Below are positions 9,491-16,707 of a stretch of DNA of 49,340 nt, in pieces. Location: the NCBI GenBank assembly GCA_964448075.1, contig CAYUUR010000005.1, forward strand, positions 1-49,340. The letters run 5' to 3'. Position 1 is the first letter of the stretch. Each line of letters starts with the position of its first letter. Made by a program: the position numbers and the translations under genes. The notes under the pieces are model-generated. The model was not told the origin of the DNA and searched no databases. It was given only the letters and a program-made list of their open reading frames with translations. Source of the stretch: an uncultured Candidatus Saccharibacteria bacterium (lineage in GTDB: Bacteria > Patescibacteriota > Saccharimonadia > Saccharimonadales > CAYUUR01).

Positions 9491-10618
9491 TTAGGCTACC
9501 TGCTGCTTACTTAAAGCATAATACTCGATTGCACCCACGGGTTTATCCAGCCCACTGACTGTTGCCACACCACTTGCATTTATTGTGTCTGTAACAATAT
9601 CCGGTATGTAGGTGGTACTTACTTCAGTGCACTCAAATGTAATTAGTAGGTCGGCTCCACGTTTGGCAGCCAGTTTGATACTGAAATCTACTACATCCGC
9701 AGAGTAGCGATTTCCACGCCTAGACTCATCAGAAACTATGCCAGGGAAAATGAATATATTATTTGTAGCGTAGTACTCTTCATACTCTCTTTCAAACGCG
9801 CTCTTATTAAACCAAGGTGCTTTATTTATATCCTGTAAGAAAATCATCAAAGTTGTTATCTCGCCATCAACACGATTTACAACTTTTGCAATGTCTCGAT
9901 CTTTTAGAATATCGATTAATGCTTCCTTGTCAAACCCAGCCAGTGTCGGGTCATTCTCGCCCAATCCTTCAAATGGTTTTTCATAAAATGACCACACATG
10001 TTCAGCTTCATCGCCCTCAATACTAGCCACAAGGGATGGGCCGTTTCTCGCATCTCTCTCGTAGATTTCCTCATCAAGCGCTTGCTCGTATGCCTCAAAC
10101 ATGGTTGGTGCAGTTGACACATTTTGCGCCCCACTATTAATAGCCACATGCCCTACAAAAAAATCTACCCTACTTTCGACGCCATCTTCTCCCCCAAATG
10201 CTTCAACCCTAAACCTTTGATCTAGTTTTGCCTCGCGTACAAGTTCAGCTATTGGACTTGCATTATCGTCACTATACTTTTCAGTAACAACCACTCCACC
10301 GCGCTCTATAACTTCTTCAATCATTGATTTAACAGACTCGTGTGATTCCGCGTCAGCTGTAGGCGGGTGGACATAGCAGTAAATATCCGCATTTTTACCA
10401 TAAGTCCTCTCTAGTAGAGCAGTGTTGTACCATTCAAGTGCCTCAACAGGTACAAGCACTGGGGCACTAACCTCATTTCCGTCCTGGTTTAGATAGTCGT
10501 AGTGTAAGGTTCCTGGGTTTTCTAATGCTCTTTCTAGATCTTCGCCAAAAATGCCGACAACTAGTATTTGATTATTCTCAGCCCTGTAATCGCTGTACTC
10601 GCTCATATTACTCTCCAA
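9491..10618 (-). CDS. Hypothetical acidic cytoplasmic protein
   Basis: 375-aa ORF with no TM segments. It overlaps the upstream membrane-protein ORF by 11 nt. I cannot assign a family with confidence. Confidence 0.5.
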   Translation of the reverse strand: MESNMSEYSDYRAENNQILVVGIFGEDLERALENPGTLHYDYLNQDGNEVSAPVLVPVEALEWYNTALLERTYGKNADIYCYVHPPTADAESHESVKSMIEEVIERGGVVVTEKYSDDNASPIAELVREAKLDQRFRVEAFGGEDGVESRVDFFVGHVAINSGAQNVSTAPTMFEAYEQALDEEIYERDARNGPSLVASIEGDEAEHVWSFYEKPFEGLGENDPTLAGFDKEALIDILKDRDIAKVVNRVDGEITTLMIFLQDINKAPWFNKSAFEREYEEYYATNNIFIFPGIVSDESRRGNRYSADVVDFSIKLAAKRGADLLITFECTEVSTTYIPDIVTDTINASGVATVSGLDKPVGAIEYYALSKQQVA

Positions 10619-11896: not shown

Positions 11897-13021
11897 TTAC
11901 TCGGACAGGAAGATTTGGCTGGGTATTTGAAAGTCATTGAACGGAGCGCCATAAACAACTGTGTACGCACCAGCTGAGCCAAAATATACCTTGTCTCCAA
12001 TCATAAGTGTCTCTGGCAAAAGTGCGTTATGCGTTATAGTGTCGCAAGAATCGCATGTCGGCCCAGTAAGAACATAGTTCGTTAGTTTGGCGTTTGGTCC
12101 ATCTTTACTGGATGTTACCGGGTATTGAATACTATCTGACTCAAACATTTCGACAAATGCTTGAAACCGCCCAACATCTAGAAATAGCCAATCCTGATCT
12201 CCACGCCTGACTTTACCAATTATTGACGATACAATCACACTACTTTCTGCCACCAAATAGCGTCCAGGCTCGCACCACAGATCAACTTCGTATGGCAGCT
12301 TAGCAACATTTGCACGGATTCTTGCGGCAATATCCTCAATTGAAGGAATCGGCTGACAATGATCTACAGGGAAACCTCCCCCAATGTTTACCACTTTCAT
12401 TTTGATGCCTGCCTTTAGCAACTCCTTCATAAGTTTTACTGTCCGCGAAAAAGCAGAGTCCCAAACTTCAAGACTTTCCGCTTGAGAGCCAACATGGAAA
12501 GCAATTCCTACAGGCTCCAGTCCTTGCTTTCGTGCATAGGTTAAAATTGAGACAGCACTATCAATTGTGGCGCCAAACTTATCGCTTAGTTTTATCAAGC
12601 TACCTTTATTCGATACGTTTATTCGCAAATATACTTTGCTGTGTGGTGCGTATTCGTGTAGCTTATCGACTTCCTCCGTTGAATCAACTGCATAAAATAT
12701 GACTCCCTTATCATAAGCCTGTTTTATATGACTAGGGATTTTTACTGGGTTACTGAAAATTACATCTCTTGGTTCTACATCCAGTTCGGTTAGGCGATCT
12801 AACTCACCGATCGACGCAATCTCGAAACCACAACCTGTAGAATAAAGTCTCTTGAGGATAGGCTTAGCTGGACATGCCTTAACAGCGTAGTAAATCTTTG
12901 TATTGGGCAGGTTAGCCTTTAAGCCATAGAATTGCCGTTGAATATAATCGAGGTCAGTAACCATCAACGGAGTACTTGCAACACTACCCTTCAAGTATCG
13001 TGCATTAAGTCTGCTCGTCAT
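11897..13021 (-). CDS. PLP-dependent ornithine/lysine decarboxylase-like enzyme (alanine-racemase fold, ODC type)
   Basis: YYAVKACPA (PLP lysine), GGGFPV, CEPGRYLVAES and GPTCDSCD motifs. 374 aa. Confidence 0.8.
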   Translation of the reverse strand: MTSRLNARYLKGSVASTPLMVTDLDYIQRQFYGLKANLPNTKIYYAVKACPAKPILKRLYSTGCGFEIASIGELDRLTELDVEPRDVIFSNPVKIPSHIKQAYDKGVIFYAVDSTEEVDKLHEYAPHSKVYLRINVSNKGSLIKLSDKFGATIDSAVSILTYARKQGLEPVGIAFHVGSQAESLEVWDSAFSRTVKLMKELLKAGIKMKVVNIGGGFPVDHCQPIPSIEDIAARIRANVAKLPYEVDLWCEPGRYLVAESSVIVSSIIGKVRRGDQDWLFLDVGRFQAFVEMFESDSIQYPVTSSKDGPNAKLTNYVLTGPTCDSCDTITHNALLPETLMIGDKVYFGSAGAYTVVYGAPFNDFQIPSQIFLSE

Positions 13022-13980
13022 GTCTTGATTGTATCATCATGCCAAACATCTACTGGCCTGACACAATACATGCGCAAAAAGTTGGTAGGCGCTAACGACA
13101 ACTTGATGTTTCTGAGTAATGGAAATCCCGAATCAGCCTCGATGTTTACAAATTTTACCCTCTCTTCTTTGAACCATCTTGCATACATATATATTGAAAT
13201 CTCCATTAAATATGGAAGTTCGTAACTAAAACGAGCATGTGACATTATCTTGTAATCGTCAGCAGGGCTATCTTGTAGAATCAAGAAACTATGTAGCTCT
13301 CCATCCAAATACATGCCCAGTCCGTTAAAGCCAAGATCATTAGCCTTACGAATCGCAATCAACAGACAATCCTCTTCGTGTTTTGCGAAGTTATTCACGC
13401 CCCCCTTTAACTTCCATCTGGAAACAAGCTCAATCAGCTCGTCAGCTTGATAAACCGAGCTCAGATCAAGCGGCGCAACTTTTATTCGCTCATTATTGTA
13501 TTCATCTAGGAATCGCTTTAATTTCCACTGTTTGTGTCTTGGCAACGCATCAATATTGGCTAGTTGACGACAGTCCACAATACACTCATCGTGTTCACGC
13601 TCTGCAGTAAAGCGAAAGAGTTCTGGGTATCGGACTTGGCTAACCACATGTTCCGGGACATGAGTCAGACATTGCTTTTGTCCCTTTGACCGCTGAAAAT
13701 CAAATACGGCGCAAAAAGTCTCATCGACATTATCGTTACCTAAAACCGTCAAGCCTGAATATTCATCATAACCTGGATACCACAAACATATCACCATGTT
13801 ATTCCCGTGCATGGCAATTCTGCACGGCTCAAGCGCACTCCACCAAGTAAGTAAAGTACCGAAGCTTAGAGAAGCAGAAGGCTGAAATCGGCTACAAAAT
13901 TGCTCGTAAAGCTCGCGGTGGGCAAGTGTGAGTTTGGTGAACTCAGGGAAGGTTTTGAAGTGAGAGGCACCTTTTTGCAT
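13018..13980 (-). CDS. DUF2156 / LPG_synthase_C-like protein, paralog of 8589-9488
   Basis: FTKLTLAHRELYEQF...LSFGTLLTWW pattern. Its stop overlaps the decarboxylase start (ATGA at 13018-21). The listed TTG start is at 13992. The first ATG is at 13978-80. Confidence 0.5.
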   Translation of the reverse strand: MQKGASHFKTFPEFTKLTLAHRELYEQFCSRFQPSASLSFGTLLTWWSALEPCRIAMHGNNMVICLWYPGYDEYSGLTVLGNDNVDETFCAVFDFQRSKGQKQCLTHVPEHVVSQVRYPELFRFTAEREHDECIVDCRQLANIDALPRHKQWKLKRFLDEYNNERIKVAPLDLSSVYQADELIELVSRWKLKGGVNNFAKHEEDCLLIAIRKANDLGFNGLGMYLDGELHSFLILQDSPADDYKIMSHARFSYELPYLMEISIYMYARWFKEERVKFVNIEADSGFPLLRNIKLSLAPTNFLRMYCVRPVDVWHDDTIKT

Positions 13981-14079
13981 GATGGGCTCCAATTTGCACT
14001 TATCGTACTATCTTTTGACAGGAATGAAAATTGCTTGTGCTAGACAGTATGTAATAACTGGTGCACAATAAAACTAAAG

Positions 14080-14445
14080 ATGAAACAAAAAGTCGCTGTT
14101 ATCGAAGATGATCTGCCAATCTGTGAGATGTATGAGTTCAAGCTACAAAACTCTGGGTTTGAGGTCAAGACGGCTCACAATGGACAGGATGGCTACAAGC
14201 TAGTAGAAGTCTTCAAGCCAGATCTTATTCTACTGGACCTCAAAATGCCCATCATGACGGGGGACGCCATGCTGCAAAAACTCCGCCAAACTGAGTGGGG
14301 TGCAAACCTGCGCGTTATTATCCTGACAAATATTAGCCGCGACGAAGCACCGCATAGCCTGCGCTTTCTGAACGTTGACCGCTATATCGTCAAAGCACAC
14401 CACACGCCGCAACAGGTAATAGATATCGTCAAAGAACTCATCTAG
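14080..14445 (+). CDS. Stand-alone receiver-domain response regulator (REC only)
   Basis: 121 aa with EDD acidic pocket, LLDLKMP phospho-Asp motif, ILTN and a conserved K (VKA). No output domain. Confidence 0.9.
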   Translation: MKQKVAVIEDDLPICEMYEFKLQNSGFEVKTAHNGQDGYKLVEVFKPDLILLDLKMPIMTGDAMLQKLRQTEWGANLRVIILTNISRDEAPHSLRFLNVDRYIVKAHHTPQQVIDIVKELI

Positions 14446-14542
14446 CAGTACGGCATTGTTTGAACTTTGGAGTACGACTCTCTCATCGTTTTCAGATTCT
14501 CCGAATTTAATCACAAAGCTTAGCAATTGTTCAGAGTTTCAA

Positions 14543-15058
14543 TCACTTAGAAACTACTTTGTTAACCGCACTCCGCAATTTACGGTTGCTCAATGCATAG
14601 ATTGAGGTTAGCAATTCTAAATCACATCCATTCAAATCATTTGATGTTAGATTATTCTTTGGCCTAAAGATTGTGTGACTATACCTCAATATAATGCTTG
14701 TTATCAATGATCTTTTGATAAGCTCTACGTTTACATCGGATGGCTCCGTGATCTCTTCTTTTATGCCTAAAGTATCCGGGTTAATTTCACTGTTGAAGGC
14801 ACAAAACTGTGGTATTTGCTCAAGTGTAGCCTTAGTAGCGACAAACGAAATCTTTCTGCCCTGTGAGTCGTAAAGTTTAAAGCCGGCATCCAAGATTCCT
14901 GTCCCGAAATTATACACGTATTCAATGTTGTCGCTTATCTCATCAACAGAATAACCACCTCTATAACGATCAAGAAGGTAGTAGGGAGACTTTGTGTGTG
15001 AAGCTGCCAAGTTCATCATCTCCAGAATAGCAAACTTCGCATAAATGAGTGTAACCAT
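14543..15058 (-). CDS. Hypothetical protein (orphan immunity-like cassette gene)
   Basis: 171-aa AT-rich ORF with an ATG start, lying between the intact receiver gene and its relic. Confidence 0.4.
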   Translation of the reverse strand: MVTLIYAKFAILEMMNLAASHTKSPYYLLDRYRGGYSVDEISDNIEYVYNFGTGILDAGFKLYDSQGRKISFVATKATLEQIPQFCAFNSEINPDTLGIKEEITEPSDVNVELIKRSLITSIILRYSHTIFRPKNNLTSNDLNGCDLELLTSIYALSNRKLRSAVNKVVSK

Positions 15059-15187
15059 TCTATCGTGCTGATTGTCGCAAATTAAATACTGTCATTATGT
15101 AGATGCTCTCACTCTTATGTATGGTGGTTTATTGGAGAATAGAGTGGCTTTCATTTTTGTGGCTAGAATCTGATAATAGTGAACATT

Positions 15188-15685
15188 CTACTTGTTTAAT
15201 ATTTTGGAGAAAAATCCTCGTTTTTGTTTACGAATGTCGAGTAGTAGCCCTGATTTCAACTGTCTTCGTACAATACCTGGCGGCTGTTGCACATTCCCAG
15301 TTTTAGTTATTTCGAAGTAGTATTTCTCGTCCTGACCAAGGATGAGGCACCCGAAACTAGCGTCAGCGGTTAGCTCTTGTAGAAATGGAAGCCTCGAAAG
15401 TTGCATCCCAATACTAATAAGTTGCTCTTCCGTACAATTACTTTTTTGAGGCATATCAACTTTGATTTTGAGGCTTATTTTACCGTAGTTTGTAGAATCA
15501 TCATAAAATGCCGTTAGTGTGTCGCTTTGATAGTGTAGTGTGACCTCGACCTGTTTCTCGATGTTGCCCTCTCTTACACAATACGTAATTGGCACTTTTG
15601 ACATTGCAATAAGTAATAGGAGACTTTTGTCTAGTTTCAAAATCTGATTAACTTGGTGTTCTAGATTAGTCGACATTGTCTTCAT
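15188..15685 (-). CDS. Hypothetical protein (orphan immunity-like cassette gene)
   Basis: The listed start at 15706 is TTG and abuts the relic. In-frame ATGs occur at 15683-85 and 15674-76. Confidence 0.4.
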   Translation of the reverse strand: MKTMSTNLEHQVNQILKLDKSLLLLIAMSKVPITYCVREGNIEKQVEVTLHYQSDTLTAFYDDSTNYGKISLKIKVDMPQKSNCTEEQLISIGMQLSRLPFLQELTADASFGCLILGQDEKYYFEITKTGNVQQPPGIVRRQLKSGLLLDIRKQKRGFFSKILNK

Positions 15686-15707
15686 TATCTCATAGGAGCC
15701 CGCCAAA

Positions 15708-15761
15708 ATAGCCTACGCTTCCTAAATGTTGACCGCTATATCGTCAAAGAACTCATCTAGC
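15708..15761 (+). pseudogene. Relic 3' end of a REC-only response-regulator gene
   Basis: It aligns to 14354-14446. There are 4 mismatches in 42 nt, all synonymous third positions. A 39-nt in-frame deletion lies between two ATCGTCAAAG copies. The last 12 nt, including the TAG, are identical. Confidence 0.85.
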
Positions 15762-15851
15762 GAGCGTTAACTCATAAAACATCAAGTATCATTTGCTTTC
15801 CTAACGATGCCAAAACCCAGCAGTCGTTAGCCACAGCACTGTTGCAACGAA

Positions 15852-16196
15852 CTACAGTTTGATGACTTTTGATTTTACTTGAGTGTCGGTCGCGGAACCG
15901 AAGCGCAAAGTTACTTGTTTGCTTTTGAACTTTGAGGAACGAACAGAGTGTTCTATTTTTGCCCAGATATGTTCTGCGGAACGGCCGTATATGTACAGAA
16001 TGGCTTCACCCTCGCCAATTTCATGACCATCAAACTCTGCTGTGTCGGCAAGGATGTCCGTAATTGAACTCTCAAGTTTGCGTAGCATATCATGATCATC
16101 CTTATCGCCAAGCTTTCTATCAGACCGAAAAACTACAGATACAATTACAGCCTGTTCATCAGGTAAGTCTTCTTTTGGATGTAAGTCAACCAACAT
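15852..16196 (-). CDS. Hypothetical small acidic protein (immunity-like)
   Basis: 114 aa with an ATG start, second gene downstream of the RHS toxin gene. Confidence 0.45.
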   Translation of the reverse strand: MLVDLHPKEDLPDEQAVIVSVVFRSDRKLGDKDDHDMLRKLESSITDILADTAEFDGHEIGEGEAILYIYGRSAEHIWAKIEHSVRSSKFKSKQVTLRFGSATDTQVKSKVIKL

Positions 16197-16259
16197 ATCT
16201 CTAACTACTCCCAGTACGATCGATCTGATTCATCGAGTCATAGGCTCCATATTAAAAGT

Positions 16260-16703
16260 TCACTCTATGGACGTGCGATGTGACGAATATGGCTCAAAAT
16301 GCCGTACTTTGACAAGTGAACTTTTCCGCTTTAATAGCGCATTAATATTAAACTTCTCTTCACCTACTTCTACTTTGTATGAGGTATGATGTTTGTCATA
16401 TTCGCGAATTGTTATTTTTCCAGCGACGACATCATGAATTAGTTTTCTGAGACTTGGGGCGAGTCGCTCCGGGTGTTTTGGATTTTGGAATACTTCGATG
16501 GTGTACGTATCGTCAAAGAGAACCAAGGCTGTCCAAGGCTCAACATCAATTACAATCTTACATGCCTCTCTGTTAAAAAGAGGGCTTATTTCAAGCCTTC
16601 CATCCATAAACCTAACTCGCGCCTTGTGTGTAAGGTCCTTTTTTAGCTCCATACATAACTCATTGAACGCTTGTGTTGTAAGGCTGTTGTCATTTTTCTT
16701 CAT
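16260..16703 (-). CDS. Candidate cognate immunity protein of the RHS toxin
   Basis: The ATG at 16701-03 lies 4 nt after the RHS stop (GGAAGGTAGTAGGATG). 147 aa from this ATG. No recognisable family. Confidence 0.5.
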   Translation of the reverse strand: MKKNDNSLTTQAFNELCMELKKDLTHKARVRFMDGRLEISPLFNREACKIVIDVEPWTALVLFDDTYTIEVFQNPKHPERLAPSLRKLIHDVVAGKITIREYDKHHTSYKVEVGEEKFNINALLKRKSSLVKVRHFEPYSSHRTSIE

Positions 16704-16707
16704 CCTA

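Follow-up and report, generated by a model that had tools for sequence, protein, structure and literature searches.

In the T6SS (type VI secretion system) clusters of Vibrio cholerae, effector-immunity modules are displaced sequentially by homology-facilitated illegitimate recombination, which leaves arrays of orphan immunity genes and displaced 3′ gene ends, and the same displacement process has been proposed for Rhs loci; immunity arrays at toxin loci would originate in this way and then undergo frequent homologous exchange (PMC5361080). The locus described here lies in a stretch of 49,340 nucleotides (nt) of contig CAYUUR010000005.1 from an uncultured Candidatus Saccharibacteria bacterium (GCA_964448075.1); this whole stretch is referred to as the window. 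At positions 15708..15761 of the window, on the plus strand, a stretch was identified that duplicates, at a displaced position, the 3′ end of REC1, a stand-alone response-regulator receiver (REC) gene located at 14080..14445, and the intact gene and this copy, termed the relic, are separated by a cassette of two small genes encoded on the minus strand, casA and casB. The relic lies within an Rhs toxin/immunity island, by which an array of receiver genes that is otherwise tandem is interrupted. It is interpreted as an old recombination scar that would now serve as a short REC1-homologous repeat for movement or deletion of the cassette by homologous recombination, an interpretation to which a probability of about 55% is assigned.

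The locus shares with sequential displacement a polymorphic toxin gene whose body is conserved and whose tip can be swapped, a row of small genes, one of which (imm2) lies beside its tip in a relative and is probably orphaned here, scars of non-homologous joins, the exchange of blocks from strain to strain by homologous recombination, and the lack of a dedicated recombinase. It differs from the T6SS clusters of V. cholerae in that the displaced fragment derives from a convergent neighbour of housekeeping type, REC1, and not from the 3′ end of a toxin gene, and in that a direct repeat flanks the cassette and could itself serve as a homology arm; moreover, it is an Rhs system of the Sec type in a bacterium of the candidate phyla radiation (CPR), not a T6SS of the Proteobacteria, and the part played by casA and casB in immunity is a candidate one. 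A second resemblance is to integrative elements that target the 3′ ends of tRNA, tmRNA or protein genes, in which the displaced 3′ end corresponds to attR: the target gene is intact, a partial direct copy of it lies beyond the insert, and the terminal segment is identical. Unlike such elements, however, the locus has no integrase that could be found in or near the insert, which comprises 1.26 kb with two small open reading frames (ORFs), and its repeat carries a deletion of 39 nt and has diverged in the relatives. rAID-type clusters of Bacteroidales are recombinase-associated arrays of acquired immunity genes. In common with these arrays and with integrons, the locus contains unrelated small genes, likely immunity genes, that show presence/absence polymorphism, and casB appears to have entered at a single fixed edge, which is the 5′ end of the relic; in contrast to them, it has neither an integrase nor an attC-like repeat between the cassettes, and its single pair of repeats comes from a host gene. 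The locus works like the arrays of orphan immunity genes that sequential displacement builds at Rhs, CDI and T6SS loci. It neatly exemplifies a process that is already known, and its unusual detail is that a fragment of a convergent neighbouring gene brackets the cassette with host-gene homology.

The displaced 3′ end of REC1

REC1 is an intact gene of the plus strand that encodes a receiver protein of 121 amino acids (aa; Pfam Response_reg, E = 1.8e-17), and its 3′ end, consisting of the last 31 codons (14354..14445, plus strand), was delimited by a repeat search and alignments as the first copy of the repeat. The repeat search of the window paired 14354-14398 with 15708-15752 (41/45 identical, 89%) and 14423-14446 with 15738-15761 (24/24 identical, with the TAG stop codon included). 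Within REC1, two 12-nt copies of ATATCGTCAAAG, located at 14384-14395 and 14423-14434 on the plus strand, bracket the 39 nt that are absent from the relic. The relic corresponds to codons ~92-121 of REC1 minus 13 codons, ends with the TAG and is non-coding, as it has no in-frame start. At its 5′ edge (15707/15708), the homology ends abruptly with microhomology of at most 2 nt, and on the left the sequence runs on from REC1 without a break; in the 97-nt spacer between the stop codons of REC1 and casA, which are convergent genes (14446..14542), homology to the flank of the relic stops 1 base past the stop codon.

Over the first 42 aligned nt, the relic and REC1 differ at four positions (CTG/CTA, TTT/TTC, CTG/CTA and AAC/AAT), each of which is a transition at a third codon position of REC1 and leaves the amino acid unchanged. 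That four of four differences would be synonymous has a chance probability of 0.003 under uniform substitutions and of 0.02 if transitions alone are considered. A 22-mer, GTTGACCGCTATATCGTCAAAG, is present at just two sites in the window, namely the REC1 end and the relic, and two matches were obtained in 0 of 100 shuffles. When REC1 was used for a DNA search of the 1.07-Mb genome, the relic was the only other significant match (E = 3.6e-10), with a weaker one in REC2. The relic is 92% identical to the REC1 of its own genome and 87% identical to that of the relative L204 (see below); REC2 and REC3, tried as alternative sources, were discarded, as the relic aligned with REC1 and with neither of them.

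A first-pass annotation, made from the sequence of the window alone, had described 15708-15761 as a copy of the end of the receiver gene, and the repeat search and the genome search agree in bearing this out; the four synonymous third-position differences that it listed were likewise confirmed, and an alignment with the three intact paralogs, relative to which it had recommended placing the relic phylogenetically, shows REC1 to be the nearest. Its account of a 39-nt deletion between two repeats, followed by an identical tail with the TAG, holds, except that the repeat measures 12 nt instead of 10 and that the tail, counted through the repeat, extends over 24 nt. The purely synonymous pattern had also been read as proof of descent from a diverged functional allele or paralog, but this argument has less force than it was given: of the four states, two are shared with the relic of a distant lineage, L198, and two are private to the relic of the window, and two further states common to REC1 and the relic of the window point to a later exchange between the copies (see below).

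Since the relic is short and its 92% identity to its own REC1 suggests recency, a recent local duplication might be considered, along with chance similarity or an artefact of assembly. The 1.26 kb between the two copies is, however, not duplicated DNA but single-copy in the genome, and the same structure is found in a lineage whose synonymous divergence from the window is saturated; the view of the first-pass annotation that the relic is not a recent local duplication is in agreement with both results. The repeat lies far beyond chance by the shuffles, the genome search and the scan of L198. As for an assembly artefact, the structure was recovered in independent assemblies from several other samples, including L029 (100% identity) and L032 (99.6%). 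Recent duplication, chance and artefact are refuted by the L198 relic, the independent assemblies and the shuffle scan, and it is almost inconceivable that any of them is the true origin.

Haplotypes with and without the cassette

Three haplotypes were found. In the window, the order is REC1, casA, casB, relic, imm2, imm1 and Rhs; the second type, L204, represents an empty site, and the third, L198, contains casA and no casB. The L204 type (L204, L205 and L206; GCA_018001115.1 and others), a close relative, was located through the one close homolog of imm2 (85% aa identity) and consists of an intact REC1 followed, after a spacer of 91 nt, by the imm2 homolog, Rhs and REC2; an alignment and a relic scan of L204 revealed no casA, casB, relic or imm1. 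Nucleotide identity between L204 and the window amounts to 88.8% in REC1 and upstream of it, 86% in 15738-16162, which pairs with L204rc 961-1385, and 92% in 16997-25753, and the 834 nt of the window at 16163-16996 have no counterpart in L204, where the interval comprises 366 nt. The relic, the 90-nt spacer that follows it (15762..15851), which is the ortholog of the 91-nt spacer located 3′ of the intact REC1 in L204, and imm2 (15852..16196, minus strand, 114 aa), a candidate immunity gene, are collinear with REC1, the spacer and the imm2 homolog of L204.

casA (14543..15058, minus strand, 171 aa) and casB (15188..15685, minus strand, 165 aa) showed no family in searches of Pfam, NCBIfam, PADLOC and PHROG. 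Among 5.8 billion proteins, casA has one homolog cluster (68% aa identity). casB is an ORFan confined to this lineage, and neither a word search nor a full HMMER search over 1.84 billion representatives yielded a real homolog; short matches to DUF11-repeat proteins and to zinc-finger proteins were rejected as spurious. The two AlphaFold models, one for each of these proteins, had predicted local distance difference test scores (pLDDT) of 37 and 55. The two are most likely orphan immunity genes that are kept against the toxins of neighbours.

The homolog cluster of casA led to the third haplotype, L198-L202, a set of contigs from five samples that are syntenic with the window and distant from it. 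The order in L198 is REC1, casA, relic, imm2 homolog, an unrelated 125-aa gene, Rhs, REC2 and REC3, and casA is the part of the cassette that is common to both lineages. REC1, casA, REC2 and REC3 are about 75-84% identical to those of the window at the nucleotide level; identity at 1029 four-fold degenerate sites is 32%, which equals saturation, and imm2 shows about 42-44% aa identity with saturated synonymous divergence (dS). The spacer between REC1 and casA is absent from L198, where the two genes overlap by 4 nt. Upstream of casA, the alignment of the window with L198 extends ~15 nt past the start codon; beyond this point L198 continues with the relic, whereas the window has ~630 nt with casB.

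The relic of L198, at L198rc 10556, was missed by blastn-short with the REC1 of L198 itself and was clear in an ungapped scan with the relic of the window, in which 38 of 48 positions were identical and the best shuffle reached 28. Its 5′ edge is equal to that of the window relic within a few nt, and the two relics also have in common the gap of 39 nt as well as the states CTA and TTC. Because the edge and the 39-nt deletion are common to the window and L198, the relic appears to have formed once, to be old and to travel with casA. A second short match to the REC1 of L198 was noticed at L198rc 10535-10560 (CAAT-TGCGTTTA, 12/13), ~10 nt upstream of CTACGTTTC in the relic, and has the appearance of a minor duplication within the L198 relic or of a patch left by conversion.

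When the REC1 proteins of the L204 and L198 types were looked up exactly, the same contigs alone were retrieved and no further haplotype, and the one other genome of the GTDB family has no Rhs gene. REC1 orthologs (51-82% aa identity) were available from 160 loci of Saccharibacteria, and self-comparison of these loci detected a copy of the REC1 3′ end elsewhere in the locus in none of them (0/160); the junction pattern of the relic was found in 0 of 399 other genomes of the order. A conserved element behind all receiver genes is ruled out by these two counts. The comparison with relatives that the first-pass annotation proposed has produced both a relative without the cassette, in that L204 carries REC1 directly before the ortholog of the sequence from 15762 onward with neither cassette nor relic, and a differing cassette, in that L198 carries casA without casB. 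Of the two outcomes by which that annotation would have been contradicted, neither was observed: cassette polymorphism exists, and receiver genes in general are not followed by such an element. Its term "two-gene cassette" is correct as to the location between the end of REC1 and the relic but not as to a single unit, as casA is present in L198 and casB is limited to the lineage of the window. The scar is also older than that annotation implied and is no recent private event, being shared with a lineage of saturated synonymous divergence.

The same comparisons bear on the possibility that the two REC1 copies are the attachment sites, attL and attR, of a small mobilisable element that would insert site-specifically into the 3′ end of REC1, with the 24-nt tail as its core and a recombinase encoded elsewhere. 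In the relic of L198, the supposed core is changed (AACCTATCTAA against AACTCATCTAG), although the same relic edge in two distant lineages, the 24/24 identity of the tail in the window, and an intact target gene whose insert is flanked by direct repeats of its 3′ end, as in elements of tRNA genes and other gene 3′ ends, would be expected of such an element. No recombinase domain was detected by domain searches among the ORFs tested in 6313-31090 of the window, which include those of the cassette, the island and the neighbouring genes; the one PF00589 tyrosine recombinase of the genome lies on another contig and is presumably the housekeeping Xer enzyme, and no repeat element is present between casA and casB. 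The empty site was seen in a different lineage only, that of L204. Attachment sites are accordingly regarded as a very improbable origin of the two copies.

Identity between the window relic and that of L198 reaches 79%, far above the neutral value of ~32% at four-fold sites, and the relic is always positioned immediately upstream of the first cassette gene, which would be in line with a function: its minus strand may be part of the promoter or 5′ untranslated region of casB in the window and of casA in L198, or its transcript may pair with the 3′ end of the REC1 mRNA, by which expression of the cassette would be coupled to the receiver gene. A weak promoter-like site at 15813-15785 on the minus strand would transcribe through the relic. 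However, no convincing -35/-10 pair was found inside the relic, the number of promoter-like sites equals that of shuffles, and there is no relevant Rfam match. The relic of L198 displays scattered changes even in its longest blocks, and the 3′ ends of REC1 genes are 82-92% conserved, so that conversion by REC1 explains the likeness. A function of this kind is considered quite unlikely.

Age of the cassette and direction of the founding event

Between the window and L198, casA has a dS of 0.75 (bootstrap 0.49-1.07) and a ratio of nonsynonymous to synonymous divergence (dN/dS) of 0.27. For the three REC genes, dS is 1.74 (1.23 to saturated), and for Rhs, Mur and imm2 it is undefined (saturated). 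Because the dS of casA is about half that of its flanks, casA appears to be younger than they are, and the cassette would have been exchanged between the lineages after their split.

Exchange is also visible between strains. Four contigs from four other samples, designated strain B, show 0 differences in 1431 positions over 14326-15756 and 9 in 588 to the right of it, in 15757-16337; the first of the nine changes the last codon of the relic from ATC to ATA, and six more are located within the next 77 nt. The chance that all nine would fall right of 15757 is ~1e-5, and a recombination breakpoint is placed by this distribution, as judged from these contigs, at the 3′ end of the relic. In strain C (L030), REC1-casA contains one difference, and the sequence left of 13903 resembles L204 and not the window. 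Within the 5′ end of the LPG_synthase_C-like gene located there (13018-13992), the similarity of both L204 and L030 to the window ends left of ~13903 (13903-13920); relative to the closest relatives, this gene of the window is replaced by a different allele, and the decarboxylase gene beyond it has probably been replaced likewise.

Four-fold identity between the window and L204 is 0.71 for REC1, imm2 and the distal part of the Rhs body, and ~0.71 was also noted for a 131-aa gene. It rises to 0.87-0.95 in the proximal 1200 codons of Rhs and in REC2, which indicates that a recent homologous exchange probably spanned the 5′ half of Rhs and REC2. REC1 and the relic of the window share two T states (CAT and TAT) at which the REC1 genes of L204, L198 and L034 have C, and this points to a possible exchange between the two copies or to their co-transfer from one donor. 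The last 60 nt of REC1 in L204 and L198 (L204rc 924-983 and L198rc 9945-10004) are identical at 56 of 60 positions, compared with ~70-80% in the rest of the gene, a hint of nucleotide constraint or of an inter-lineage exchange of the 3′ end. No clear gradient of divergence along REC1, by which the left crossover could be placed, was observed between the window and L198.

The following order of events is proposed. The starting state would have been that of L204, with REC1 followed by the 90-nt spacer and with imm2 and Rhs on the opposite strand, converging on REC1. A single event, either illegitimate or anchored by homology, would have inserted foreign casA DNA between REC1 and the spacer, the source being in the simplest case DNA taken up from a relative, and would have duplicated the last ~92 nt of REC1, so that one copy completes the gene and the other became the relic. 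Slippage between the two ATATCGTCAAAG repeats of the relic would have removed 39 nt. The block REC1-casA(-casB)-relic may then have moved into related genomes with REC1 by double crossover, in which REC1 would provide the long arm and the relic the short arm, and part of the relic would be rebuilt on transfer from the REC1 end of the recipient. From time to time, one repeat would convert the other, or the cassette would be deleted by recombination between them, and casB would have come in, or dropped out, where the relic has its 5′ edge. Because direct REC1 repeats flank the cassette, ordinary homologous recombination without a local recombinase would suffice. ComEC, DprA and RecA are present in the genome, natural competence and the integration of DNA by homologous recombination have been shown in other Saccharibacteria (PMC10633639), and the route of uptake for cassette movement is probably natural transformation. 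Insertion or replacement of a cassette by recombination, as suggested in the first-pass annotation, is supported by the empty site, the casA-only haplotype and the breakpoint; its further proposal that the receiver gene was the anchor of the founding event is undecided as between one side of the insert and the other.

The founding event may instead have taken place in the reverse direction. According to this explanation, REC1, casA, (casB) and Rhs were resident, and an L204-like fragment consisting of the Rhs core, a toxin tip, imm2, the spacer and the last 92 nt of a donor REC1 was integrated, anchored in the conserved Rhs core and joined illegitimately at its far end upstream of casA/casB; the relic would be the hitch-hiking end of the tip/immunity module, and casA and casB would be older immunity genes pushed outward, as in sequential displacement. 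The collinearity of the relic, the spacer and imm2 with REC1, the spacer and the imm2 homolog of L204 is in favour of this direction, yet between the window and L198 imm2 is far more diverged (42% aa identity, dS saturated) than casA (68% aa identity, dS 0.75), so that casA looks like the later arrival. In L204, the imm2 homolog lies directly behind a different Rhs tip, with which it looks like a cognate pair, and a second displacement of the same kind is visible in the new tip and imm1 of the window, with its distal breakpoint in the 5′ end of imm2. The reverse direction is mechanistically simpler, in that the usual anchor is the conserved part of the toxin and no duplication step is required (PMC5361080). 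On the other hand, casA was not seen in any haplotype that lacks the relic, and at 38-40% the cassette has the lowest guanine-plus-cytosine content of the region, the values for the Rhs gene and around REC2 being 44-50%. The reverse direction is the main rival of the order proposed above and is considered rather unlikely.

Several points weigh against the preferred reading of the relic as an old scar that has become a REC1-homologous repeat. The low dS of casA could be explained in part by AT-biased codon use. The 79% identity of the two relics exceeds the ~53% expected from the dS of casA, and gene conversion or functional constraint is also needed; the relic of L198 matches its own REC1 at 37 of 48 positions and other REC1 genes at 38-39 of 48. 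The right arm, 42 nt plus 12-24 nt, is very short for RecA-dependent exchange. With only three haplotypes known, the sequence of events is a reconstruction by parsimony. Finally, casA and casB are candidate immunity genes, the models of which are of low confidence.

A more far-reaching version of the preferred reading is that the relic is a working "portable homology arm" and that the cassette is a recombinase-free mobile unit, which enters and leaves by RecA recombination after transformation. This version is possible but tentative, and it may well prove incorrect. If it is true, the non-coding 54-mer would stay REC1-like in lineages whose neutral divergence is saturated, because each transfer would rebuild part of the relic from the REC1 of the recipient.

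The Rhs island and the receiver-gene array

Across the 160 loci, the usual layout is a tight tandem of REC1, sometimes more REC paralogs, and REC3, followed by Mur ligase, and in several loci without the island REC2 is located 60-77 nt after REC1. In the window, 9.5 kb, with all genes on the minus strand, separates REC1 from REC2 (23941..24321, plus strand), a receiver paralog that marks the far edge of the island; REC3, a stand-alone receiver gene, is located at 28611-28982. The order on the minus strand after the Rhs gene is imm1, imm2, casB and casA, and the relic lies between casB and imm2. Several other lineages have 1-5 kb of unrelated genes between REC1 and the next REC gene, for example genes for a HAD hydrolase, a uridine-kinase-like protein, an aldo-keto reductase, a class I tRNA synthetase, a surface protein with an Ig domain and an FtsX permease. 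Rearrangements recur at the REC array. The window has an ABC-type operon between REC2 and REC3, at 24928-28114. L198 has no such operon there, its REC2 and REC3 being direct neighbours; what it does have, next to its pair of LPG_synthase_C paralogs, is a 471-aa gene together with an ABC ATPase.

The island's toxin gene (16708..23808, minus strand) encodes an Rhs/YD-repeat protein of 2366 aa with a variable C-terminal tip (Pfam PA14, GLEYA and RHS_repeat), which is the sole match to RHS_repeat (PF05593) in the genome. Its body is 89-98% identical to that of L204 at the nucleotide level, and its last ~96 codons, which encode a different tip, are unalignable at the DNA level. imm1 (16260..16718, minus strand), which is absent from L204, is the candidate cognate immunity gene of the present tip, and neither imm1 nor imm2 could be assigned to a family in the searches described above for casA and casB. 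The imm2 homolog directly follows the Rhs tip in L204, whereas imm1 and the other tip lie between in the window; from its position in L204, the homolog is probably the cognate immunity gene of that tip, and imm2 of the window would be an orphan. The Rhs tip of L204 (C-terminal ~80 aa, L204:9076-8840 region), the counterpart of which in the window is 16708-16996, has a GIY-YIG-like motif, GKLYVGQTNNF..R..EH. The arrangement suggests, at the level of sequence, that imm2-type proteins may neutralise a small nuclease tip of the GIY-YIG type. Relative to L204, the window has probably gained the new tip together with imm1, and the far breakpoint would lie in the 5′ end of imm2.

Saccharibacteria have tiny genomes and few mobile elements. 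The locus constitutes a dated record in three states (empty, casA, and casA plus casB) of the gain and loss of immunity-type genes at a toxin island of these bacteria. Should the relic not act as a homology arm, it would represent a clean but ordinary recombination scar; if it does, gene cassettes would circulate without any recombinase, and the arrangement would offer a minimal design for targeted insertion in bacteria that are hard to engineer.

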